Position numbers and translations under genes: made by a program
Part shown: piece after piece, positions 4,664-45,851 of the stretch
Numbering within the stretch: position 1 is the first letter of the stretch
How the letters are laid out: each line of letters starts with the position of its first letter
From: Spirochaetia bacterium
GTDB lineage: Bacteria > Spirochaetota > Spirochaetia > SZUA-6 > Bin103
Assembly: GCA_965198005.1 (NCBI GenBank)
Contig: CBDAOI010000001.1
Coordinates: 1 to 64,000 of the forward strand
Direction: 5' to 3'
Length of the DNA: 64,000 bases
Notes under the pieces: generated by a model
Database searches by the model: none
Told to the model about the DNA's origin: nothing
Seen by the model: the letters and a program-made list of their open reading frames with translations, nothing else

Positions 4664-4938
4664 GCGTTCTCATGGGCACGGTGATGCGTGACGACACGTC
4701 CCAGCGCTCCCACCGGTTAGCGGTAACGCAGCCGGTGCATCCTACCACCACCACTACCCGTTCACCGAGAACTGCGGCTTCGCCTGCAGCACCGGGGGAG
4801 CGGCCGGCTCCGCGTGGCGCCGGCTCAGTCCACTGCATCCCCGACCACGACACACCGTCGCAGAACCAACCGCCGGCGTTGCCGGTCAATCACATCCATT
4901 ACAACCCTGCCGGTATTCCCGGCGCACAGGAGGTGCAC

Positions 4939-4974
4939 ATGGTACTCAAACAACCGCACGTGCGCGCGGCGTGA
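4939..4974 (+). CDS. Leader peptide uORF MVLKQPHVRAA
   Basis: SD GGAGGTG just upstream; homologous uORFs at 22208, 37367 and 43555. Confidence 0.7.
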   Translation: MVLKQPHVRAA

Positions 4975-5083
4975 GCCCGCTGAGTTACACGCCGCGCGCA
5001 CGTGCAGATTGGACTCGGTCTGGCCGCCTGCAACGCGGGCATGAGAGTAGCCAGAAAGCGGCAATCCGCTCCGCAATACTCTC
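4956..5083 (+). ncRNA. Structured cis-regulatory leader RNA, copy A
   Basis: Perfect 18-bp stem 4956-4973/4988-5005 plus further pairings conserved in other copies. Confidence 0.7.
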
Positions 5084-5108
5084 GAAAAATCCACATACGG
5101 AGAAACGT

Positions 5109-6884
5109 ATGAACATTGTAATAATCAGAATGACCTTCGCGATTGCGTTGGTCCTCGTCGTTACCGCAACCGGCCTGTGGGCCGCTGGCGCAGAAGAGGA
5201 GTCGGCGTCCGCCGCCGACAAGGAAATGGTGCTCGACCCGACCACCGGCAAGATGGTGACCGCGCCAGAGTACGGCGGGACCATAACCCTCGCCGCAGTC
5301 GAAGAGCAGATGAGTTCTGACACCGCGGAATCTGGCCCCAATGGATCTGGCATGGTCTCTGGCGTAGTAGAGAAGCTGGCCTTCGCGGACTGGGCAACGC
5401 CCAGGGACGAATTTGACTTCCAGTTTCTCAACGTTCCAGCTAACACGAGAGGTCAACTGGCGGAAAGCTGGTCGCAGCCCGACCCACTGACCCTCGTCAT
5501 AAACGTCCGCCAGGGAGTTCACTGGCACGACAAGGCACCGATGAACGGTCGGGAGCTGATTGCCGATGATATCGTATTTAACTTTCACCGCGTATTTGGT
5601 ATGGGCAGCGGATTCACCGAAGCTAGCGAATGGCTTCAAGACTGGGCCGGTGTCGAATTTGAATCGATAACGGCCACCGACCAGTGGACGGTTGAGTTCA
5701 AGTTGAAACAGCTAAGCCTCACTGCGCTGCGGCTTGTCCTCGACCACTGGATTTCTAACATATATCCCCCCGAGGTACTCCAGGAACACCGTGACATGCT
5801 CGATTGGCGGAACCTGGTCGGCACCGGGCCTTATGAGGCGACTGAATGGGTCGGGGCCAGCTCTGAGACATATACCAAGAATCCTGACTACTGGGGCTTC
5901 GACGAAAAATATCCGGAGAACCGCCTGCCCTATGCCGACCAGATAAGGGTCCTGATTATGCCCGAAGTGGCCACAATGCTGTCGGCGCTGCGCACCGGTA
6001 AGGTCGATCGTGGATACACATTGAGGACTATCGACCAGGTAGAGGGCCTCGAGAGGACCAACCCCGAACTCGAGATCTGGCCAATTTACGGTCGGGCGGA
6101 TTACATGTTCGGCATGGACAACATTAATCCGCCCTTTAACGACATCAGGGTGCGCAAGGCAATGCAGATGGCACTAAACCTCGAGGAAATCAACAGCGCC
6201 TACTTTGGAGATTATGCAGATATGATACCTCAGGGGCTGTTGAACCGGTTAATGACCGAGGTTGTCTTCCAATTTGAAGAGTGGCCCGAAGATGTCAAGA
6301 AGGTCTTCGACTACGACCCGGAAGGTGCCGAAGCGTTGCTCGATGAGGCCGGATATCCTCGCGGCGCCGACGGTACCAGATTCACGGTCGAGTTCATGCA
6401 CCTCAATCGGTATTCTGTGACCTGGCCAGAATTAGTCGGTTCATACTGGAAAAAGATTGGCGTTGATATTGAGATCGAGGTACTGCCTATAAACCCATGG
6501 GTGGCGAGAAGCAGAGCGAAGGATTTCCAAATAAAGAATTTGTCCGGCGCCGCAAAGTGGTTCCCAATGCCATACTTGAGTGGCCAGCTGACGGAGGCTG
6601 GATTTTACGGCTCCGTTAACGCCGACGCGGATTATGATGCCATGTCTGAAGCCGCCGGAGCCGCTACCACCACCGAGGAGCAGAACAGGATTTATAGACA
6701 GATGAATCAGCATGTGATAGAGAACTTCTATGCGATATGGGCTGGCAATGCGCCAACGTATCAGGTAACCCAGCCCTGGCTCAAAGGTTATAACGGTGAA
6801 AACTGGATGGGAAACGGTCAACGGCTCCCAGTCTTCGCCCGCCTCTGGATTGACCAGGATCTGAAGAGAGAAATGGGCTTTTAG
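5109..6884 (+). CDS. ABC substrate-binding protein, family 5
   Basis: Signal peptide, YGGTIT, LAESW, VGTGPY, PFNDIRVRKA, A..LLDEAGYP motifs. Confidence 0.93.
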   Translation: MNIVIIRMTFAIALVLVVTATGLWAAGAEEESASAADKEMVLDPTTGKMVTAPEYGGTITLAAVEEQMSSDTAESGPNGSGMVSGVVEKLAFADWATPRDEFDFQFLNVPANTRGQLAESWSQPDPLTLVINVRQGVHWHDKAPMNGRELIADDIVFNFHRVFGMGSGFTEASEWLQDWAGVEFESITATDQWTVEFKLKQLSLTALRLVLDHWISNIYPPEVLQEHRDMLDWRNLVGTGPYEATEWVGASSETYTKNPDYWGFDEKYPENRLPYADQIRVLIMPEVATMLSALRTGKVDRGYTLRTIDQVEGLERTNPELEIWPIYGRADYMFGMDNINPPFNDIRVRKAMQMALNLEEINSAYFGDYADMIPQGLLNRLMTEVVFQFEEWPEDVKKVFDYDPEGAEALLDEAGYPRGADGTRFTVEFMHLNRYSVTWPELVGSYWKKIGVDIEIEVLPINPWVARSRAKDFQIKNLSGAAKWFPMPYLSGQLTEAGFYGSVNADADYDAMSEAAGAATTTEEQNRIYRQMNQHVIENFYAIWAGNAPTYQVTQPWLKGYNGENWMGNGQRLPVFARLWIDQDLKREMGF

Positions 6885-6988: not shown

Positions 6989-7948
6989 ATGAAAGCCTAT
7001 ATCATTAGGCGGCTGTTGCTGATTCTGCCCACGCTGTTCATCTTGACCATCCTGGTCTTTCTCTCTGTCCGTTTCATCCCCGGCGATGTAATAGACACGA
7101 TACAAGGTAGGATTATGTGGACAGCACCGGGCGGAGTTGACCGGGAAGCTCTTCTCCATAAGCTGGGATTGGACGTGCCTGTGTACGTGCAGTATGGACG
7201 CTGGATCGGCGATATTGTCCTGCACGGCTCTCTCGGCGAGTCCCTGCTGACTGGTTTCGCAGTAGGGGAGGCGATATTAGAGAGACTGCCGGTCACCCTT
7301 GAGCTTGGTCTGCTGGCAATCCTCATCGGGCTGGTGATCGCGCTGCCGGTGGGCATCTACTCGGCGATTCGCCAGGATAGCGCCGCCGACTTTCTGGGGC
7401 GCTCGGTCGCCATCATCGGCCTGGCTACGCCGAACTTCTGGCTCGGCATCATGGTCATGATCTACCCGGCCATCTGGTGGGGCTGGTCACCACCGCTGGA
7501 GCTGGTTTCCTTTACCGAAGACCCGCTGGAGAATCTCTGGGGGTTCCTGATCCCGAGCCTGATTCTGGGAACGGCCGCGGCTGCCGCCACCATGCGGATG
7601 ACGCGCACCATGATGCTGGAGGTGCTGAGGCAGGACTATATTCGAACCGCCTGGTCCAAGGGGCTCAGGGAGCGGGCCGTGGTGATCCGACACGCCGTCA
7701 AGAACGCCCTCATCCCGGTGGTGTCCCTGATCGGCCTGCAGTTGCCGATCCTGGTCGGGGGCGCCGTGATCATGGAGAACATCTTCAACCTGCCGGGGCT
7801 CGGGCGCCTCCTGCTGAATGCCCTCAACGACAGAGACTACCCGATGGTCTCCGGCATCAACCTGTTCTTCGCCACTGGGGTGGTGGTGATCAATCTGCTC
7901 ATCGACGTGCTCTACGCCGTCCTGGACCCCAGGGTCCGCTATGACTGA
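6989..7948 (+). CDS. ABC permease OppB/DppB-like
   Basis: Full length, MKAYIIRRLL start, PGD and EAA motifs. Confidence 0.93.
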   Translation: MKAYIIRRLLLILPTLFILTILVFLSVRFIPGDVIDTIQGRIMWTAPGGVDREALLHKLGLDVPVYVQYGRWIGDIVLHGSLGESLLTGFAVGEAILERLPVTLELGLLAILIGLVIALPVGIYSAIRQDSAADFLGRSVAIIGLATPNFWLGIMVMIYPAIWWGWSPPLELVSFTEDPLENLWGFLIPSLILGTAAAAATMRMTRTMMLEVLRQDYIRTAWSKGLRERAVVIRHAVKNALIPVVSLIGLQLPILVGGAVIMENIFNLPGLGRLLLNALNDRDYPMVSGINLFFATGVVVINLLIDVLYAVLDPRVRYD

Positions 7949-21862: not shown

Positions 21863-22197
21863 CGTCCGCGAATGGGCACCGACAGCATCCAGCCCAGCCG
21901 CCGACTACCGACTACCGCTAGCCGCGCAGCAGCCGACCTCGCGGCGCCGGTGCTGACGGCGGCACCATTGATGCGTGTGGCGCACAGCCGCCACGCATCT
22001 GTGCGTCCAACGGCCGACCGCGTCGGCCGCAAACTCCACCGGTCCACACCAGCCGGCGTTGCCGGCACCTCTATACAGACAACCGACACATCTGTGCCCG
22101 ACCACAGTTGTCGACGACAGATGCGCGCTAGCCGCGGCACCGGCTGGTCCGATGGCCGAGCCACCGTCCTGTCAAGCTCCCCAAATAGCTCAAGAAA

Positions 22198-22362
22198 GGG
22201 GGTGCAAATGATACTCAAAGAGCCGTAGGCGCGCGCGGCGTGAGCCCGGGTGAACCCGGTGAGTCACACGCCGCGCGCTTCTGACAACTTGACTCAGACT
22301 GGCAGCCTGCGTTGCAGGCGTGAGAGTAGCCAGGGAGCGGCAGTCCGCTCCGCACTACTCCA
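22198..22362 (+). ncRNA. Leader copy B: uORF MILKEP-TAG-ARAA-TGA (22208-22243) plus structured RNA
   Basis: Homologous to 4928-5083; TGAGTCA/TGACTCA and GAGTAG/CTACTC pairings. Confidence 0.72.
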
Positions 22363-22387
22363 AAAAACCTGATTAATGGAGAAAACC

Positions 22388-24220
22388 ATGAATGTTATCG
22401 TAAGCATTACAAGGGCCTTCGCGGTTGCGTTGGTCCTTGTCCTGACCGCAACCGGCCTGTGGGCCGGTGGCGCAGAAGAGGCACCGGCAGCCGCCGCCGA
22501 GAAGGAAATGGTGCTCGACCCGACCACCGGCGAGATGGTGGAGGCCCCACGATATGGCGGGACAATAACCGCTCTCAGTAGAGATTGGGGTCCAGCGACT
22601 TTTGACCAATATCTTTCGGCCCCTCAGTTGGGTGCTTTTACCCACGGTACTTTAGAGAAGCTAGGCCTCGGCGACTGGGGAGTAGATAGGAACGTATGGC
22701 AATGGAACCTTGCTGGTGCAGTGTATCCGGAAGATCTCGTGATAGGGGCGCTGGCGGAAAGCTGGGATATTTCCTCGGACAACCTCACCTATACCTTCCA
22801 CATCCGCCAGGGCGTTCACTTCCACGATAAGCCACCGGTGAACGGACGGGAGATGACTGCCGAGGATGTAGAATATAGCTTTCACCGCATGTTGGGAAAT
22901 AGACTGACAGGGACCGAGTTCAGTGGAACCGAACCCTCCCCCCACATCGGTCATTGGAGAGCTCTTCCGGTCGACTCGATAACGGCAACGGACACATGGA
23001 CGGTTGTTATCAAGCTGACACAGCCAGACCCCCGTGCGCTTACGCTCATGACCGACGCGACGACCATGTACATTGTTCCAAGGGAGGTAATCGACACACA
23101 CGGTGACATGAAGGATTGGAGGAACTTTATCGGCACCGGACCCTGGATGATGGATGAGTATGTCGAGAGCAGCTCGGTAACCTATACCAGGAATCCTAAC
23201 TACTGGGGCTTCGACGAGAAATTTCCGCAGAACCGCCTGCCCTATGCTGACGGATTCAGGTGGCTGATTATGCAGGACCAGGCAACAATGACCGCGGCCT
23301 TTCGCACGGGTAGGGTCGATTTCCAGGGCGGACGCAGTAGCGCCGTGCTAAAAAGCTTGGACGATGAGAATAACCTGCGACGGACCAACCCTGAACTCGT
23401 GATAACTCGGCATGTTAACCGGTCGGACTATGGGATGGGCATGAACATGCAGAGGCCGCCCTTTGATGACATCCGGGTGCGCAAGGCAATGCAGATGGCA
23501 CTGGACCGTGAGACACTTCACAACACCTACTTCAAAGGGTGGGGAAGCCCGACACCTCAATCATTGCTAGCCAGCGATCTCCCAGGGGTTGGCACCCCAT
23601 TTGAAGAGTGGCCCGAAGAGATCAAGAAGATCTATGAGTACAACCCGACGGAGGCCGAGAGGCTCCTTGATGAGGCGGGGTATACGCGCGGGGCCGACGG
23701 CATCAGGTTCAAGCTCACAATGGCACATTACGAGCTCACCGATCTGGACTATGCGGAATTAGTAAGCAAGACATACTTCCGTGACATTGGCGTTGAAGTA
23801 GAGGTTATTCCAGTTGCAGGTGCGGACTGGGCAGCTACGGTTACTGCTGCAGAGTGGGACTTTTTTGGCGGTATGACAATGGCGGGGAGATATCAGGATC
23901 CCTCGGGTTTTTTGGGTCAGCACACCAGTGCTTCTTCTCTCAATCGCTGCCAGTGCGCCGATCCGGTTTATGACGCCCTTTTTGAAGAGGCCAGCAAGGC
24001 AAGCACGCGAGCGGAGATTCTGCCGCTGTATAAAAAGCTGAATGACCGATTAAGAGATCAGGTGTATTTCGTATGGGGTCAGGAAACGCCACTCTACTCG
24101 GTGCAGCAGCCGTGGATCAAAGGTCGCAACGGCGAATATGTTCTGGGATCTAACGTGGAGTCCGTCATCATGGCCCGCCTCTGGGTCGACCAGGAGTTGA
24201 AGGAAGCGATGGGTTATTAG
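22388..24220 (+). CDS. ABC substrate-binding protein, family 5 (alternative start 22376)
   Basis: Signal peptide and family-5 motifs as for 5109. Confidence 0.93.
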   Translation: MNVIVSITRAFAVALVLVLTATGLWAGGAEEAPAAAAEKEMVLDPTTGEMVEAPRYGGTITALSRDWGPATFDQYLSAPQLGAFTHGTLEKLGLGDWGVDRNVWQWNLAGAVYPEDLVIGALAESWDISSDNLTYTFHIRQGVHFHDKPPVNGREMTAEDVEYSFHRMLGNRLTGTEFSGTEPSPHIGHWRALPVDSITATDTWTVVIKLTQPDPRALTLMTDATTMYIVPREVIDTHGDMKDWRNFIGTGPWMMDEYVESSSVTYTRNPNYWGFDEKFPQNRLPYADGFRWLIMQDQATMTAAFRTGRVDFQGGRSSAVLKSLDDENNLRRTNPELVITRHVNRSDYGMGMNMQRPPFDDIRVRKAMQMALDRETLHNTYFKGWGSPTPQSLLASDLPGVGTPFEEWPEEIKKIYEYNPTEAERLLDEAGYTRGADGIRFKLTMAHYELTDLDYAELVSKTYFRDIGVEVEVIPVAGADWAATVTAAEWDFFGGMTMAGRYQDPSGFLGQHTSASSLNRCQCADPVYDALFEEASKASTRAEILPLYKKLNDRLRDQVYFVWGQETPLYSVQQPWIKGRNGEYVLGSNVESVIMARLWVDQELKEAMGY

Positions 24221-26228: not shown

Positions 26229-27977
26229 ATGACACTCTGCCCCTCTACCAGCCGTTCACCGAGAATTGCTGGCGTTTTCGCCCTCATCGGGGCGGTGATC
26301 CTGCAGGCAGTGTGTGCCACGGTGCATGCGGAGAGCCCCCAGGGTTCCGTCACTGTCGAGTCTCAACCCCTGAATCCGGACACGCGTCCGTGTATCGACG
26401 CCTTCGAGTCCCATCGTCTGCCGCATGTCACCCAGGGGACTGCCGCCGGCGTTGGCCTTTTTTTCGGCAACGGCTCCGGCGTGGCCCTGGCCGATCTCGA
26501 CGCCGACGGCCTCATCGATATCGTCCTGCCGGGGCTGCATGCGCCCACCACCCTGCTCTGGAACGAGGGAGGGTTGCTGTTTCGGAGCGAGACGCTGGAC
26601 TCGACGCTCGCACGCGCGGTCAACGCGGTTGATGTGGATGGCGATGGCCGGATGGACTTGGTGTTTACGCACTTGCTCGGGGTGCCCACGTTCTGGAGGG
26701 GCAGCGCCGGCCCTAACGGTCCTCGGTTCACACGCGTTGCCGAGGAGCAATTCCATGGCAGCTTCAAAGCCTATGCAATCGCCTGGGCCGACTTGGACGA
26801 TGACAGCGACCTCGATATGGTCGGGGCCTCCTACGAATCTTCAGTTAGTACCCTCGCGTTGGCACGCGCGGTTTTCCGGGGGGAGAGCGAAGAGGAACTG
26901 GTGAACAGATTAGGCTCCGATTTGGGAGGCGGGGTGTTCTTGTTGACCAACGACGGCGGTGCCCTCACCCCCTTGCGCCTTACCGCCAAGGCGACCGCCC
27001 TGGCGCTGATTCTGACTGATGTCGATGGCGATGGCCGTCGCGACATCCTGGTCGGCAACGACTTCCACCCGGCCGATGCGGTGTTCCTCAATAAGCCCGA
27101 AGGCTGGATCGACGCTGCCCCGTTCACCTCAACAACGACCAACACGATGAGCTTTGCAGAGGGTGATGTCGATAACGATGGGATTCCGGAGCTGCTGGCC
27201 ACCGACATGAAACCCTATTCTCAGGACGAATCAGTGGACAATGCCTGGGGCCCAGTGCTGGACATGGTCGGGGATATGGATCCAAAGGATGGGGTCCAGA
27301 TTGCCCGCAATGTCTTGCAGACCCGAACGGCGGCAGGCGCAGGATTCGTAGAACGAGCTGAGGCAGCCGGGGTCGATGCCACTGGCTGGAGTTGGTCAGC
27401 GCAGTTCGGGGACCTGGACAATGACGGATTCCTCGACCTCTACGTCGTCAATGGCATGATTGCTTCTGGACTCTTCGGGCACTTGGCCGGAGACGAACTG
27501 AGGGAAGAAAACCAGGCCCTGCGCAACGATGGCACCGGCCGGTTTGTGCAGGTCCCGGAATGGGGACTGGGCGCCACCGAGAGCGGTCGGGGCATGGCGA
27601 TGGCGGACCTGGACAACGATGGGGATTTGGACGTTGTGGTGAACAACCTTGCGAAACCGGCCATGCTGTTCGAGAATCGGCTCTGTGGGGGGACCGCGCT
27701 GGAAGTGGAACTGCACTGGGAAGGCTCCCCGAATCGCCGCGCAATCGGCGCCCAATTGCGTCTGCACACCCAAGACGGGACGTTGCATCGCGAGATGCGC
27801 GCCAGCAGCGGTTATCTCTCCAGTGACCCGGCTCGTGTCCACTTTGGGCTTGGCCAACTGACCGGTGAGGCCGGTGAGGCCCCCTATCATCTCGAAGTGA
27901 CCTGGCCCGACGGCCGGATATCCCGCATCGACCGACCCTCCCTGGGGACCCTAATCACCGTGCAGCGTGTGCCGTGA
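26229..27977 (+). CDS. CRTAC1-like FG-GAP repeat / ASPIC-UnbV protein
   Basis: Repeated D.D.DG..D motifs, WSW...FGDLDNDG, AIGA, GYLS....VHFGLG; signal peptide. Confidence 0.9.
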   Translation: MTLCPSTSRSPRIAGVFALIGAVILQAVCATVHAESPQGSVTVESQPLNPDTRPCIDAFESHRLPHVTQGTAAGVGLFFGNGSGVALADLDADGLIDIVLPGLHAPTTLLWNEGGLLFRSETLDSTLARAVNAVDVDGDGRMDLVFTHLLGVPTFWRGSAGPNGPRFTRVAEEQFHGSFKAYAIAWADLDDDSDLDMVGASYESSVSTLALARAVFRGESEEELVNRLGSDLGGGVFLLTNDGGALTPLRLTAKATALALILTDVDGDGRRDILVGNDFHPADAVFLNKPEGWIDAAPFTSTTTNTMSFAEGDVDNDGIPELLATDMKPYSQDESVDNAWGPVLDMVGDMDPKDGVQIARNVLQTRTAAGAGFVERAEAAGVDATGWSWSAQFGDLDNDGFLDLYVVNGMIASGLFGHLAGDELREENQALRNDGTGRFVQVPEWGLGATESGRGMAMADLDNDGDLDVVVNNLAKPAMLFENRLCGGTALEVELHWEGSPNRRAIGAQLRLHTQDGTLHREMRASSGYLSSDPARVHFGLGQLTGEAGEAPYHLEVTWPDGRISRIDRPSLGTLITVQRVP

Positions 27978-37331: not shown

Positions 37332-37355
37332 TCCACGACAACGGCCAGCACACGA

Positions 37356-37511
37356 GGAGGTGCAAGATGATACTCAAGGGACCGCACGCGCGCGCGGCGT
37401 GAACCCGCCTGAGTCACACGCCGCGCGCTTTACAGATTTGACTCGGTCTGGCCGCCTGCGTTGCGGGCGCGAGAGTAGCCAGGGAGCGGCAATTCGCTCC
37501 GCAATACTCTC
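37356..37511 (+). ncRNA. Leader copy C: uORF MILKGPHARAA (37367-37402) plus structured RNA
   Basis: SD GGAGGTG; same stems as copies A and B. Confidence 0.75.
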
Positions 37512-37535
37512 AAGAATCAACATACGGAGTTACGT

Positions 37536-39341
37536 ATGAATATTGTACACATTACCAGGACCTTCGCGGTTGCGTTGGTCCTCGTCCTGACCGCGACCGG
37601 CCTCTGGGCCACGGGAGAAACCGAATCCGCAGCCGCCGAGGCTGAAATGGTGACCGTAGAGCTTATGCGCGCGGATGGAACCATGATGACCAAGGAAGTA
37701 GAGAAGCCTCGATACGGTGGAATGTACACCGAGAGCATCGAGTTGGCGCTTCCGGCAGAGTCCTCCTGGGTAACGGGTGACCCGTCCCATACGACCTGGG
37801 CCCTCCAGGTTACCAATGAGCGGCTCCTCCAGGTCGACTGGGCGCGCGGAGCTTCCGGCACCGGAGACTATGGAGTGTTCCTGGCGCCCACCCCCGACAA
37901 GAAAACGGGAGCGCTCGTCGAGAGCTGGGAACAACCCAGTCTGACCCGCATCATTCTTCACGTGCGTCCGGGAGTCCCGTTCTGGGAGCGGAGTGACGTG
38001 GCGCGGCCCAACGATGCGCTGGAGTCGGCCTACGGTCGCCACGTCGATGCCCACGACCTCGTATTCTCCTGGGGCCAGTACTTCATCAAGACCCTCGGTT
38101 ACCACTGGACGGCCGTCGATGACATGACCGTGGAGATAACGCTGGACGAACCGGACGCGACCCAGGCTCAGTTCTTCTTCGCCCAGTTCGCCGCCGTGGT
38201 GCCGCGGGAAACCGAGGGCCTCAACATGGCCGATTGGCGGAACACGCTCGGCACGGGAGCGTTCATACCGACGGAACTGACCCCCGGTAGTGTGGTAACC
38301 TTCAAGAAAAATGAGAACTACTGGCAAACGGATCACATTCATCCTGAGAACCAGCTTCCCTACCTGGACGGGATGAGAATCGTGTCGTTTGAGGATGAGG
38401 CAGGGGTCATAGCGGCGCTACGCGCCGGCAGGCTCGACCGAACGGCGGGTCTGGGAATCGCCACCAGGTGGCAGGAGAGCCTCGAGGAGACCAATCCCGA
38501 GATCCTGTCGGGTCCGGCCATCATCAATCAAAGGGTGTTCAACGTGCGCCTGGACATCGAAGGCAGCCCCTGGCAGAACCTCCTCGTTCGCCAGGCTGCT
38601 CACCTCGCCATTCCTCACGCTGAGATACGCGACGAGTTCTACCAGGGCAATGCTCTGCTCTTCGGCTGGCCCAACTTCCCGCACCACGCTCCGTTGTACG
38701 TTCCGTTTGAAGAGCTGCCCACCAGTCCGCAAATACCCGGCTCAGGGGCCAGCGCCCGGGAGCTGTTCGAATTCCATCCCGACAAGGCCCGGGAGCTTCT
38801 TGCTCAAGCCGGCTATCCCGACGGGTTCACCTTCGAATTGCTCACTCAGCCGACAGATGCGGAATGGGCCGAGCTCTACGCCGGCTACTGGGACGACGTG
38901 GGAATCAACGCCGAGTTCAACGTGGTGGAGTCCACGGTCTTTTCGTCGAGCATCGCCGCGGGCGAGCATCAGTCGATGATCGCCACGAGCTGGGGTAACT
39001 GGGCGGATCCCTACTCGGTAATGCAGCAGTACTACGACCCAGGCAATCCGTCCAACTACTCCCGCGGTACTGACGAACGCGTCACCGATGCCTACCGCCA
39101 GATCACGCAAACCCTGGACCAGGACGAGTTGATAAGGCAGTTCCAGGAGACCGCGGTCTACATCATAGAGAATGCCGTTGTGATCGCCGGCGTTCCCGAG
39201 GCTAACTTGCAGTTCTGGCAGCCGTGGGTAAAGGGTTACAGCGGCGAGCTGATCGGCGCCGGTATTCAGGGCTGGCACGACGTCGCCAAGCACGTCTGGG
39301 TCGACCAAGACCTGAGGGAGCAGATTACCGGCAGCCGCTGA
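37536..39341 (+). CDS. ABC substrate-binding protein, family 5 (divergent)
   Basis: Same signal peptide; LVESW, LGTGAF, KARELLAQAGYPDG. Confidence 0.92.
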   Translation: MNIVHITRTFAVALVLVLTATGLWATGETESAAAEAEMVTVELMRADGTMMTKEVEKPRYGGMYTESIELALPAESSWVTGDPSHTTWALQVTNERLLQVDWARGASGTGDYGVFLAPTPDKKTGALVESWEQPSLTRIILHVRPGVPFWERSDVARPNDALESAYGRHVDAHDLVFSWGQYFIKTLGYHWTAVDDMTVEITLDEPDATQAQFFFAQFAAVVPRETEGLNMADWRNTLGTGAFIPTELTPGSVVTFKKNENYWQTDHIHPENQLPYLDGMRIVSFEDEAGVIAALRAGRLDRTAGLGIATRWQESLEETNPEILSGPAIINQRVFNVRLDIEGSPWQNLLVRQAAHLAIPHAEIRDEFYQGNALLFGWPNFPHHAPLYVPFEELPTSPQIPGSGASARELFEFHPDKARELLAQAGYPDGFTFELLTQPTDAEWAELYAGYWDDVGINAEFNVVESTVFSSSIAAGEHQSMIATSWGNWADPYSVMQQYYDPGNPSNYSRGTDERVTDAYRQITQTLDQDELIRQFQETAVYIIENAVVIAGVPEANLQFWQPWVKGYSGELIGAGIQGWHDVAKHVWVDQDLREQITGSR

Positions 39342-43205: not shown

Positions 43206-43543
43206 GACCTCGGTGACCTCGGTGACCTCCGAGCGGTTGACAGTGCGGCGCGCATATGCAAGGGTGGCTCCCCTGAGATTCGACGGATGCAGATGAAGCG
43301 CGATCACGACAGTCAGCGCAGTGGCCGGTTGGCGGTGGCCGCAACGTCACCACTGCCGGTGGCGGCGACGCTGGCGGGCGGCCGGAACGGCCGGAGTCCG
43401 CGCTTGACATGGTCAGGCAAGCCTGTGACGATAGGGAGTTCGGGGATCCCGGCCTTGCCGGCCATTCGAGACAGACAGCTTCTGTCAGGCATCTGGCAGG
43501 GCACCCTGTGGCCAAGAACCTGTGGCCAAGAAAGTGAAAAATA

Positions 43544-43612
43544 GGGGGTGCAAAATGATACTCAAAGAACCCCACGCGCGCGCGGCGTGAGCCGGGGTGA
43601 ACCCGCTGAGTC
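43544..43612 (+). ncRNA. Leader copy D, truncated: uORF MILKEPHARAA (43555-43590)
   Basis: SD GGGGGTG; homology stops after TGAGTCAC. Confidence 0.7.
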
Positions 43613-43713
43613 ACCCCTACTGACCTAGGTTCAGAAAGGGGGCTGGGGGTTGCGTTCGGAGCACCGCTTCCGACCGCGCTCCCGGCCCCTCTCTCATTGA
43701 GCAACGTGTCCCC

Positions 43714-43845
43714 ATGAAAGCCTATATCATCAGGCGGTTATTGCTGATTCTGCCCACGCTGTTCATCTTGAGCATCCTGGTCTTTCTCTCGGTGCGCTTC
43801 ATCCCGGGAGATGTAGTAGACGTGATGACCCGATTCGCGGCCGCT
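43714..43845 (+). pseudogene. OppB-like N-terminal stub
   Basis: MKAYIIRRLLLILPTLF..PGD, then joins an AAA fragment. Confidence 0.8.
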
Positions 43846-44093
43846 GGTGCTGCTGATCGATGAGATCGACGCGCTGGTGGGCGACACCCTGCTGTCGGTG
43901 CTGCGGCAGTTGCGCACCGGCTACGTCGACCGCCCGGCGCGCCGCACAGCATCATCCTGTGCGGGATGCGTGCGCCATTCAGGCATTCCCGTACTACGTT
44001 CGCTGGGTCCGGCGTTAACCAAGCAGGCCAAGCAGGTCAGTCGATTGCCTCGCGCGTGTCGGAAGCGATAGAGTCAGTGCTCAGGCTACGGTA

Positions 44094-45851
44094 GTGAGCA
44101 CGCCCCCCGCCTACCCCCGCATTCCCTACGGCGAGGCCGACTTCAGGCGCATCCGCCGGAACCGGTGGCTGTACGTCGACAAGACCCGCTTCCTGCGGCG
44201 GCTGGAGGAGGAGCGCTACGCCTTTCTGATCCGCCCGCGCCGCTTCGGCAAGTCGCTGTGGATCTCCCTGCTGGAGAACTACTACGACCGCTTCTGGGCG
44301 GACGGCTTCGCGGCCACCTTCGCCGGCACCGAGATCGGGCAGGACCCGACCGGGGAACAAAGCCGCTACGTCACCCTGCGCTTCAACTTTTCAGCCGTCA
44401 ACGACAAGCTCGAAACCTTGGAGCGGGAGTTCGAGACCTACTGCTTCATAGCGCTGCGGGGGACGCTGCGGCGGCATCCCGACCTGTTTCCCGAAGCGGC
44501 GGTACGGGACATCCTCGCGCCGCCCTCCATCGCCACCAAGCTGTCCGAGCTGTTCTGGTACGCGGGCGACCATGACATCCCGCTGTACGTGCTGATCGAC
44601 GAGTACGACAACTTCGCCAACACCGTGCTGGCGTACCACGGCGCCGAGGCGTACCACTCCTTCACCCACGGCGGCGGCTTCTACCGCAACTTCTTCGCCA
44701 CCCTGAAGTCCGGCGCGGACCGCAGCGGCGGCGGTCTGGAGCGGCTGTTCATCACCGGCGTGTCGCCGATCACCATGGACGACGTCACCAGCGGCTTCAA
44801 CATCGGCACCAACGTCAGCCTGCACCCGGACTTCAACGAGATGGTGGGCTTCACCGAGGCGGAGGTGCGGCGCCTGGTCGAGACCTACCGGGAGCTGGGC
44901 GTGTTCAACCAGGAGGTCGCTACCGCCATGGGGATCATGGGCGAGTGGTACAACGGCTATCGGTTCGCCAAGGCAGCCGAGACCGACCTGTACAACTCCG
45001 ACATGGTGCTCTACTACCTGAAGGATTCGATGCCGAACCGAGACGTGCCGGAATACCTGATCGACACCAACGTGCGCATCGACTACGGCAAGCTGCGCCA
45101 CCTGCTGGTGACCGGCCGGCAGCTCAACGGCAACTTCGACCTGTTGCGGGACGTGATCGGCGAGGAGCAGGTGGACACGCACATCCAGCCGGGCTTTCCG
45201 CTGAAGGACCTCACCAAGCCCGAGAACTTCCTCTCGCTGCTGCACTACTTCGGGCTGCTGAGCATCCGCGACGTGGTGGAGCGGGTGCCGCGGCTGGCGA
45301 TCCCGAACCAGACCGTGAAGCGGCTGATGTATGGCTTTCTGCGCGATGCCTACCGCGACGTGGAGGTGTTTTCAGTAAACCTGTTCCGGTTCGAGCAACT
45401 GATGATGCGGATGGCCAACCGGGGCGAGTGGCGGCCGGCGTTCGAGTTCCTGAGCGAGGCGATCGCACGGCAGACGGGGATTCGCGACTACATCGCCGGC
45501 GAGAAGGTTGTGCAGGGGTTCCTGGCTGCCTATCTGAGCGTGAGCGACCATTACGTGTTCCGCTCGGAGGCGGAGCTGGGCAAGGGGCACGCGGACATCT
45601 GCCTGGAGCCGCTGGTGGCCCGTTATCCGAACCTGCAGCGCGGCTATCTGATCGAGCTCAAGTACGTGAAGCGCAGCGAGTCGGCGGACGAGGCCGCCGT
45701 GGCGGCGGCGGCCACCGCGGCAACGGCGCAGCTCGAGCGGTATCTGGCGGAGGAGCGGCTGGCGCGGCAGTTTCCGGGGGTGCGCTTCATCGGCCTGATC
45801 GTGGTGTTCCACGGCTGGGAAATGGTGTTCTGCGATGCCGTGCGGAGGTGA
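44094..45851 (+). CDS. AAA-ATPase-like / PD-(D/E)XK protein, paralog of 15189-16946
   Basis: Same 585-aa length and motifs. Confidence 0.92.
   Translation: MSTPPAYPRIPYGEADFRRIRRNRWLYVDKTRFLRRLEEERYAFLIRPRRFGKSLWISLLENYYDRFWADGFAATFAGTEIGQDPTGEQSRYVTLRFNFSAVNDKLETLEREFETYCFIALRGTLRRHPDLFPEAAVRDILAPPSIATKLSELFWYAGDHDIPLYVLIDEYDNFANTVLAYHGAEAYHSFTHGGGFYRNFFATLKSGADRSGGGLERLFITGVSPITMDDVTSGFNIGTNVSLHPDFNEMVGFTEAEVRRLVETYRELGVFNQEVATAMGIMGEWYNGYRFAKAAETDLYNSDMVLYYLKDSMPNRDVPEYLIDTNVRIDYGKLRHLLVTGRQLNGNFDLLRDVIGEEQVDTHIQPGFPLKDLTKPENFLSLLHYFGLLSIRDVVERVPRLAIPNQTVKRLMYGFLRDAYRDVEVFSVNLFRFEQLMMRMANRGEWRPAFEFLSEAIARQTGIRDYIAGEKVVQGFLAAYLSVSDHYVFRSEAELGKGHADICLEPLVARYPNLQRGYLIELKYVKRSESADEAAVAAAATAATAQLERYLAEERLARQFPGVRFIGLIVVFHGWEMVFCDAVRR

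Follow-up and report, generated by a model that had tools for sequence, protein, structure and literature searches.

A modular 5' leader, absent from Rfam and apparently a new, lineage-specific cis-regulatory element, recurs before paralogous SBP genes in the genome of a Spirochaetia bacterium. Judging from its sequence, the leader is very probably a functional cis-acting RNA. Our best explanation, to which we give about an even chance, is a genus-specific modular 5' leader, with a pseudoknot for control and an accessory mini-ORF, common to more than 100 paralogous ABC-importer operons of the Opp/Dpp type (SBP_bac_5). The window, that is, the whole 64,000-nt stretch analysed here, corresponds to positions 1-64000 of contig C1 of a 4.89-Mb MAG (66% G+C, 90% completeness, 3.3% contamination). 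Searches with Rfam 15 gave no match at the gathering score in the whole window, only noise (E > 2) over 4850-5150, and no match at E <= 1 for four leaders of a sister family (type II, see below), in keeping with the preliminary description of this DNA, which had not recognised the leader. The listings and abstract openings returned by literature searches likewise held no description of it.

The preliminary description had placed four copies of a Shine-Dalgarno (SD) sequence plus an 11-codon upstream ORF in the window, and its placement was borne out for all four copies, A to D. The features of the window are the following.

4928..4935, plus strand: SD AGGAGGTG of the copy A mini-ORF, read in the sequence; the SD is kept among 79 copies
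4939..4974, plus strand: mini-ORF of copy A, 11 codons and TGA, MVLKQPHVRAA; ATG in 110/115 distinct copies
4956..5005, plus strand: hairpin P1, with the final mini-ORF codons as its 5' arm and the stop at the loop (RNAfold, RNAalifold)
5020..5024, plus strand: pseudoknot stem S1, 5' arm CTGGC, pairing with 5050-5054
5026..5040, plus strand: hairpin P2, within pseudoknot loop 1, optional
5043..5049, plus strand: pseudoknot stem S2, 5' arm GAGAGTA, pairing with 5077-5083
5050..5054, plus strand: pseudoknot stem S1, 3' arm GCCAG, adjoining the S2 5' arm
5057..5070, plus strand: inner hairpin of pseudoknot loop 3, type I only (from the fold)
5077..5083, plus strand: pseudoknot stem S2, 3' arm TACTCTC
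5094..5111, plus strand: small hairpin P4, with the weak SBP SD (GGAG, 5099-5102) and the SBP start codon (5109-5111) (RNAfold)
5109..6884, plus strand: SBP_bac_5 gene behind copy A (Pfam PF00496, E 1e-56)
6989-7948: permease gene after the copy A SBP gene
22197..22387, plus strand: copy B leader; SD 22197-22204, mini-ORF 22208-22243 with TAG as codon 7 at 22226-22228, core match 22288-22366
22376-24220: SBP gene behind copy B (PF00496, E 2.5e-76)
37355..37535, plus strand: copy C leader; SD 37355-37362, mini-ORF 37367-37402, core match 37437-37516
37536-39341: SBP gene behind copy C (PF00496, E 7.8e-47)
43543..43616, plus strand: copy D, a truncated remnant in which only the SD (43543-43550), the mini-ORF (43555-43590) and the 5' portion of P1 remain

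Full copies start with AGGAGGTG or AGGGGGTG, followed by three to five variable bases, and can be aligned from the SD onward; among 79 copies the spacer between SD and ATG varies from 3 to 5 nt and the SD itself is kept. The mini-ORF had been said to start 169-180 nt before the SBP start in copies A, B and C, and we measured 168-180 nt from ATG to ATG (170 nt in A, 168 or 180 nt in B, 169 nt in C). All three SBP genes of the window are of the SBP_bac_5 type and are followed by OppB/OppC-type permeases (Pfam). Single-sequence folds of copies A, B and C yielded z-scores of -5.4, -3.3 and -3.2 against shuffled sequences, and hairpin P4 is restricted to some subfamilies of the leader. A promoter scan of the three full copies called nothing of the sigma-70 type close to the leader. 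The last gene of the copy B operon (26229-27977) encodes a 582-aa protein with FG-GAP repeats and an ASPIC/UnbV domain, an unusual partner of an Opp-type transporter.

The resemblance of copy D to the other copies stops near 43616 (blastn query positions 1-50 only). It is followed by no SBP gene; instead, we found a short permease-like N-terminus, breaking off near 43850, and then an AAA-ATPase gene (44094-45851) with Predicted AAA-ATPase and PDDEXK_9 nuclease domains (Pfam). Past copy D (43617-45851), a G/C-rich palindromic stretch resembles the spacers between SBP and permease genes elsewhere, and the region looks like an operon wrecked by rearrangement.

Blastn comparisons produced 91 HSPs in the source genome and 81 copies that include the 5' end, indicating that the leader recurs far beyond chance. 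Seventy of these 81 copies precede a paralogous SBP_bac_5 gene in the same orientation and at a distance of 154-327 nt, and for 69 of them the SBP start is no more than 220 nt away. The downstream genes, assigned by N-terminal motif, Pfam and tblastn, have one common signal-peptide-like N-terminus. No recognisable SBP N-terminus was found downstream of the remaining 11 copies, of which the one read closely, copy D, proved to be a truncated remnant. Linkage to transporter genes had been proposed as a test of whether this is a plain mobile repeat, and the fixed orientation and distance of 70/81 copies before SBP genes speak against one. Indeed, a mobile or REP/MITE-like repeat landing before genes by chance would account for the high copy number, the palindromic parts, the optional mini-hairpins nested within the leader and a single duplicated insert of 19 nt, but we consider it extremely improbable, because the copies sit before a single gene family, copy D has lost most of the leader, reading revealed neither terminal inverted repeats nor target duplications, and the downstream signal-peptide codons are conserved along with the leader.

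The genome contains approximately 155 SBP-like loci (tblastn), of which 74 have the type I leader described above and 81 do not; many of the latter have the sister, type II leader. A model of the leader core (R1, 80 positions), whose match counts per genome are lower bounds, has at least 116 matches in the source genome. Among paralogues, the SBPs show a median identity of 49% and the leaders 75%, and the two values are uncorrelated (r = 0.12). Contigs from sponge metatranscriptomes of three studies contain the leader stretch, and one 160-nt contig of run X1 spans 4902-5061 with zero mismatch, which attests to presence in an RNA library only; this support comes from assembled Logan contigs, fragmented by the paralogues, and an uncovered part does not count as a finding.

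The part of the leader with covariation support is an H-type pseudoknot, a topology that follows from the S1 3' arm being placed directly after the S2 5' arm, and it ends approximately 24 nt before the SBP start: 24-25 nt separate the end of the S2 3' arm from the SBP ATG in 46/66 measurable copies (70 examined). In the annotated structure of 66 type I copies, 95.8% of the cells are paired, as compared with 28-50% when the partner columns are slid, and seven pairs are changed on both sides, as compared with 3.1 expected. Stem S1 of type I is paired in 97.3% of cells, with one compensatory change (66 copies), and S2, taken over both families, in 96.5%, with compensatory changes in 3/7 pairs. 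The pair closing the inner hairpin of loop 3 (219/225) changes from G-C through G-U to A-U, and also from G-C to C-G. Loop 3 carries conserved unpaired bases, CGGCA, and the SBP SD lies outside the pseudoknot.

Type II leaders have the same P2 and S2 as type I, and a different S1 at the same place (CCCTCGC/GCGAGGG versus CTGGC/GCCAG); the length and content of loop 3 also differ between the two types. P2 is missing in two type II copies, L106 and L110, and is thus optional. Aligned to a covariance model, 53 type II copies drawn from six genomes plus two metagenome contigs have 94.2% of cells paired versus 38-54% when slid, with 48 cells changed on both sides versus 13.7 in shuffles, a value reached by 0/500 shuffles. 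S2 of type II is 99.7% paired, with three compensatory pairs. The alignment was fitted to the nested part of the model, with S1 outside it; in this alignment one S1 pair changes from C-G to G-C in four sequences and to U-A in three. After re-anchoring, 37/53 rows showed 7/7 S1 pairs and a few rows were mis-anchored. In JGI metagenome contigs, the core pattern occurs in 24 stretches, two of which pass the core model, both as type II, and the exact mini-ORF pattern occurs in none. A strong SD with a mini-ORF of 1-8 codons, unrelated in content to that of type I, is present in 24/26 type II copies, with the forms M(Q/A/T/P)PKTGYD, MQN/MEN/MRN, VKP/VKL and ATG-stop. In type II leaders L096 and L097, short direct repeats (CCAAGACACGA-like units) in copy-variable number lie directly past the mini-ORF stop; in the type I leader of the window, no C-rich repeat was seen. 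We also noticed a third kind of SBP leader, in which a small hairpin (GGGTACCGGGA...CCCGA) and GAGGAGGAG precede the start (for example, G000 C1:227442, C4:183259 and C4:2246494) and which the core model does not match.

These features raise the possibility of a riboswitch, in which the pseudoknot would be the aptamer for one global metabolite or second messenger serving the whole SBP set. S1 and S2 together form the conserved, covarying fold expected of a riboswitch, making the pseudoknot a candidate aptamer only, and the compactness of the H-type fold, the conserved unpaired CGGCA in loop 3 and the fixed distance to the start site over more than 100 copies would all agree with this reading. 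Among known H-type pseudoknot riboswitches are preQ1-II, SAM-II and fluoride, with which the leader has in common a pseudoknot of covarying stems, conserved loop bases and a position near the start site. Unlike these, however, it has no Rfam match, leaves the SD outside the fold, occurs in one genus only and is present in more than 100 copies per genome before the paralogues of one gene family. Restriction to one genus would be unusual for the aptamer of a universal ligand, loop 3 differs between the two types in length and content, and no terminator follows the pseudoknot, so that we regard a riboswitch as quite unlikely. That the pseudoknot is the main effector of the leader is a model that we hold with even confidence.

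Hairpin P1 comprises 13 bp on 66 copies (RNAalifold) and is longer in copy A (RNAfold). Its cells are paired in 99.1% of cases with zero compensatory changes, and it may thus be conserved for reasons other than pairing; its loop tolerates gain or loss of a mini-hairpin. The mini-ORF was found to end within a GC stem, as had been claimed, with its last four codons and stop in the 5' arm and loop of P1, and, since the 3' end of the mini-ORF is the P1 5' arm, every translating ribosome must melt P1.

We tabulated the codons of 115 distinct mini-ORFs from the source genome and the relatives that were fetched. The start codon is ATG in 110, GTG in three, TTG in one and GTA in one. Changes in codons 3-6 are nearly confined to third positions (CTC 86/CTG 28; AAA 112/AAG 3; GAA 84/GAG 27; CCG 100, CCC 7, CCT 7 and CCA 1), codon 7 is free (CAC 84, TAG 16, TAC 8, TGG 4, others 3), and codons 8-11 are nearly invariant. 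The peptide therefore has 11 residues, or six in the 16 copies with a stop at codon 7. This pattern agrees with translation and some constraint on MILKEP, but not with any function of the C-terminal half of the peptide; the periodicity rests on few independent events, with a rough estimate of p about 0.05. Constraint at the peptide level, as suggested in the preliminary description, consequently holds in part: third-position variation in codons 3-6 is in its favour, whereas codon 7 varies freely and the stem fixes codons 8-11 without compensatory change, as its own caveat about the conserved RAA had anticipated. On the strength of the codon pattern, translation of the mini-ORF is probable. ATA, AAA and GAA are uncommon in this genome (11%, 22% and 35% of their codon families), and the preferred Lys codon genome-wide is AAG (78%), yet the mini-ORF keeps AAA in 112/115 copies. 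Retention of these uncommon A-ending codons makes a constraint at the RNA level likely, besides that on the peptide.

Several other readings of the mini-ORF region were discarded. GATACT as a -10 box is without a -35 box and would leave the conserved AGGAGG without a role; the upstream flanks, read by eye, offered no fitting GG..GC spacing of the sigma-54 type; UGA as a selenocysteine codon, with the loop mini-hairpin as SECIS, is contradicted by a 10-nt indel that breaks the frame; and the candidate frameshift site CTC AAA G before P1 contains no slippery heptamer in frame. Binding of CsrA to GGA motifs was set aside as well, given that no CsrA gene was found in this 90%-complete genome.

The preliminary description had cast the leader as an attenuator, in which the position of a ribosome on the mini-ORF selects between P1 and an alternative fold, thereby switching read-through or SBP translation. 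In support of such a mechanism, the mini-ORF ends inside P1, which makes its translation and P1 mutually exclusive; MILKEP evolves in a coding-like manner; and the TAG variants place Pro before the stop, a context that is slow to terminate. Furthermore, masking the mini-ORF and the P1 5' arm in the folds exposes a 5-6-bp hairpin between GAGTCA of the P1 loop and TGACTC just 5' of S1. This hairpin shows almost no covariation and its sixth pair is often A.C, although one peripheral pair is changed on both sides in L019 (GAGTCG/CGACTC). Against attenuation, no repeated regulatory codon exists in MILKEP(H/Y/stop)ARAA among the 115 copies, and a terminator scan did not call P1, or any other plus-strand terminator, at the three full copies of the window. 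At least five T within the 8 nt after P1 occur in only 9/65 copies (mean 2.8). Modelling revealed no effect of an occupied mini-ORF on the SBP start site: over 56 copies, this site had a predicted probability of 0.48 of being unpaired, both with the mask (mini-ORF to 12 nt past the stop) and without it, in nested folds, with pseudoknots outside the calculation. P1 ends at 5005 with its 3' arm, and the SBP SD (5099-5102) lies outside it. The alleged pairing partner of the mini-ORF, TACTC with a downstream GAGTA, does exist as sequence, but 28/115 copies have CTG, for which reading the alignment revealed no matching change in the partner; pairing of TACTC with GAGAGTA of S2 was rejected on the same grounds, the CTG variants being uncompensated. 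In addition, type II mini-ORFs can be as short as ATG-stop, and some orthologues have an intact leader but for the missing mini-ORF start. Taken with the free codon 7, these results do not support the logic of trp, TnaC or SecM attenuators, and we judge attenuation to be unlikely.

Comparison with established leaders points in the same direction. The trp, his, pheA and pyrBI leader-peptide transcription attenuators are enterobacterial, and resemble the present leader in having an SD and a short upstream ORF that overlaps a stable hairpin, with ribosome and hairpin mutually exclusive. The leader differs from them in the lack of a cognate codon run, of a U-tract terminator and of an evident antiterminator, and, in contrast to trp/his-type leaders, its ORF can shrink to six codons or vanish, that of the sister family having 1-8 codons. 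Arrest peptides such as TnaC and SecM are defined by a conserved arrest motif in a peptide that fills the exit tunnel; a peptide of 11 or six residues, with position 7 free and positions 8-11 fixed by the stem, does not answer to this definition. With erm/cat translational attenuation, the leader shares a very short ORF that supplies one arm of a hairpin, but the other arm of P1 does not contain the downstream start site; that site is over 100 nt away, and its predicted accessibility is the same with and without the mask (0.48 vs 0.48). A tiny ORF in a long leader is also found in E. coli tna (tnaC plus a Rho site) and in other uORF/Rho leaders (on such leaders, see PMC7815308 and PMC12360218), and Rho is encoded in the source genome. 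As compared with tna, however, the peptide has 6-11 residues with a free position 7, and its stop is followed by a G+C-rich hairpin and not by a C-rich unstructured stretch.

To examine how the leader evolves, we compared its distribution and its state in orthologous loci. The core model is present in 7/10 other species of the genus, and gave no match in the 30 other relatives (0/13 for the sister genus and 0/17 for the remainder of the order); by blastn, the leader was found in 6/10, 0/13 and 0/17, respectively. Expansion of the SBP genes occurs in the same congeners as the leader. The leaders differ among orthologues of the copy A SBP, although these proteins share 94-96% amino-acid identity: type I with ATG in G000, type I without a start codon in G005 and G006, type I that has lost SD, start and frame and kept P1 pairing in G007, and type II in G001. 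Between orthologues, the leaders are 73-79% identical versus 92% at synonymous third positions, indicating that leaders are exchanged or recombined among loci. Part of the likeness among paralogous leaders may therefore reflect concerted evolution rather than selection, and the comparison of 49% with 75% identity is weakened; the position-specific pattern and the covariation stand despite this exchange. Conservation has no sharp beginning at the SD and extends at least 200 nt further upstream within upstream subfamilies. Additional conserved modules precede the mini-ORF, among them a CCGGC-GTT-GCCGG hairpin motif (window 4870-4885, also before other copies), and the full leader may be a mosaic of 350-400 nt.

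Exchange among loci also suggests a plainer reading, namely that the element has no special regulatory role and is the 5' UTR of an amplified, gene-converted cassette, its SD and hairpins being at most generic mRNA stabilisers. The swapping of leaders, their divergence beyond synonymous sites and their expansion in the same genomes as the SBP genes are all consistent with it. According to PMC3997798, mRNAs of bacteria lacking RNase E are stabilised by a strong SD, even without a start codon, and by occlusion of the 5' end, as in the ermC stall site and the cryIIIA STAB-SD, which share with our leader a perfect SD at a long distance from the gene's start site. The source genome encodes Rho and RNase Y; no gene for RNase J, RNase E/G or CsrA was detected in this 90%-complete assembly. 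Compared with those stabilisers, the leader keeps a start codon and a frame, and RNase J was not found. Moreover, ATG in 110/115 copies would be needless for a pure SD-type stabiliser, gene conversion leaves unexplained a free spacer and a free codon 7 beside invariant neighbours, and it does not account for the compensatory changes in S1 and S2 or for two unrelated S1 sequences at the same place. We thus deem a plain 5' UTR a rather poor prospect.

For the modular leader that we favour, we propose the following mechanism. Module 1 consists of the very strong SD and the mini-ORF whose 3' end forms the P1 5' arm. Module 2 is the H-type pseudoknot of S1 and S2, with its optional loop-1 hairpin and conserved unpaired loop-3 bases, ending approximately 24 nt before the SBP start codon and just upstream of the weak SD. 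Module 2 would serve as the common control element, setting either the access of 30S subunits to the SBP start site or the fate of the mRNA, and would probably act by binding one common trans-acting factor or ligand; on this model, the leader probably sets the amount of binding protein made. Module 1 would be an interchangeable accessory for early loading of ribosomes on a long leader, where these could keep Rho and nucleases off and order the folding of the leader, and it would sense no particular amino acid. The role of module 1 as a ribosome loader is a tentative proposal, somewhat less likely than not.

A bolder version, which strikes us as very doubtful, would make the leader an RNA 'regulon tag', in which the pseudoknot and one ligand or protein switch more than 100 operons while the mini-ORF hands post-termination ribosomes across the fold. 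The mini-ORF would then be a ribosome launcher that opens P1, so that ribosomes could reach the weak SBP start. Plant pararetroviruses employ a shunt made of a short ORF plus a hairpin, of which such a leader would be the bacterial counterpart.

If the leader is regulatory, one RNA design would control a large share of nutrient uptake in an abundant uncultured sponge symbiont, whose 4.9-Mb genome contains about 155 SBP genes and at least 116 core copies. As an uncatalogued RNA motif with natural covariation, it is a candidate for RNA family databases and for better annotation of intergenic regions. Sister species provide a natural module-swap experiment, since the same gene occurs with an ATG mini-ORF, with a start-less mini-ORF or with the other leader type, and the element is compact (about 180 nt), its parts being amenable to standard reporter and structure-probing assays.

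The genome carries leader A with its SBP gene in two copies of 100% identity, on two contigs (window 4928-6881 and G000:C4:1733552-1735505), and two further pairs of leader and gene are exact duplicates, representing either very recent duplications or redundancy in the MAG assembly. Other repeats were noticed in the genome. On the minus strand of G000:C4 (offsets 155679-161469 on the reverse complement), ten copies of one motif are spaced at approximately 642 nt, suggesting a long gene built of tandem repeats. Another unit, present about 15 times in G000, starts with AAAAGTG and continues with a run of 9-20 G and a common downstream sequence (for example, C3 + 282310 and C4 - 2075330, as offsets on the strand searched); the G run differs in length from copy to copy, resembling the terminus of a mobile or phase-variable element.
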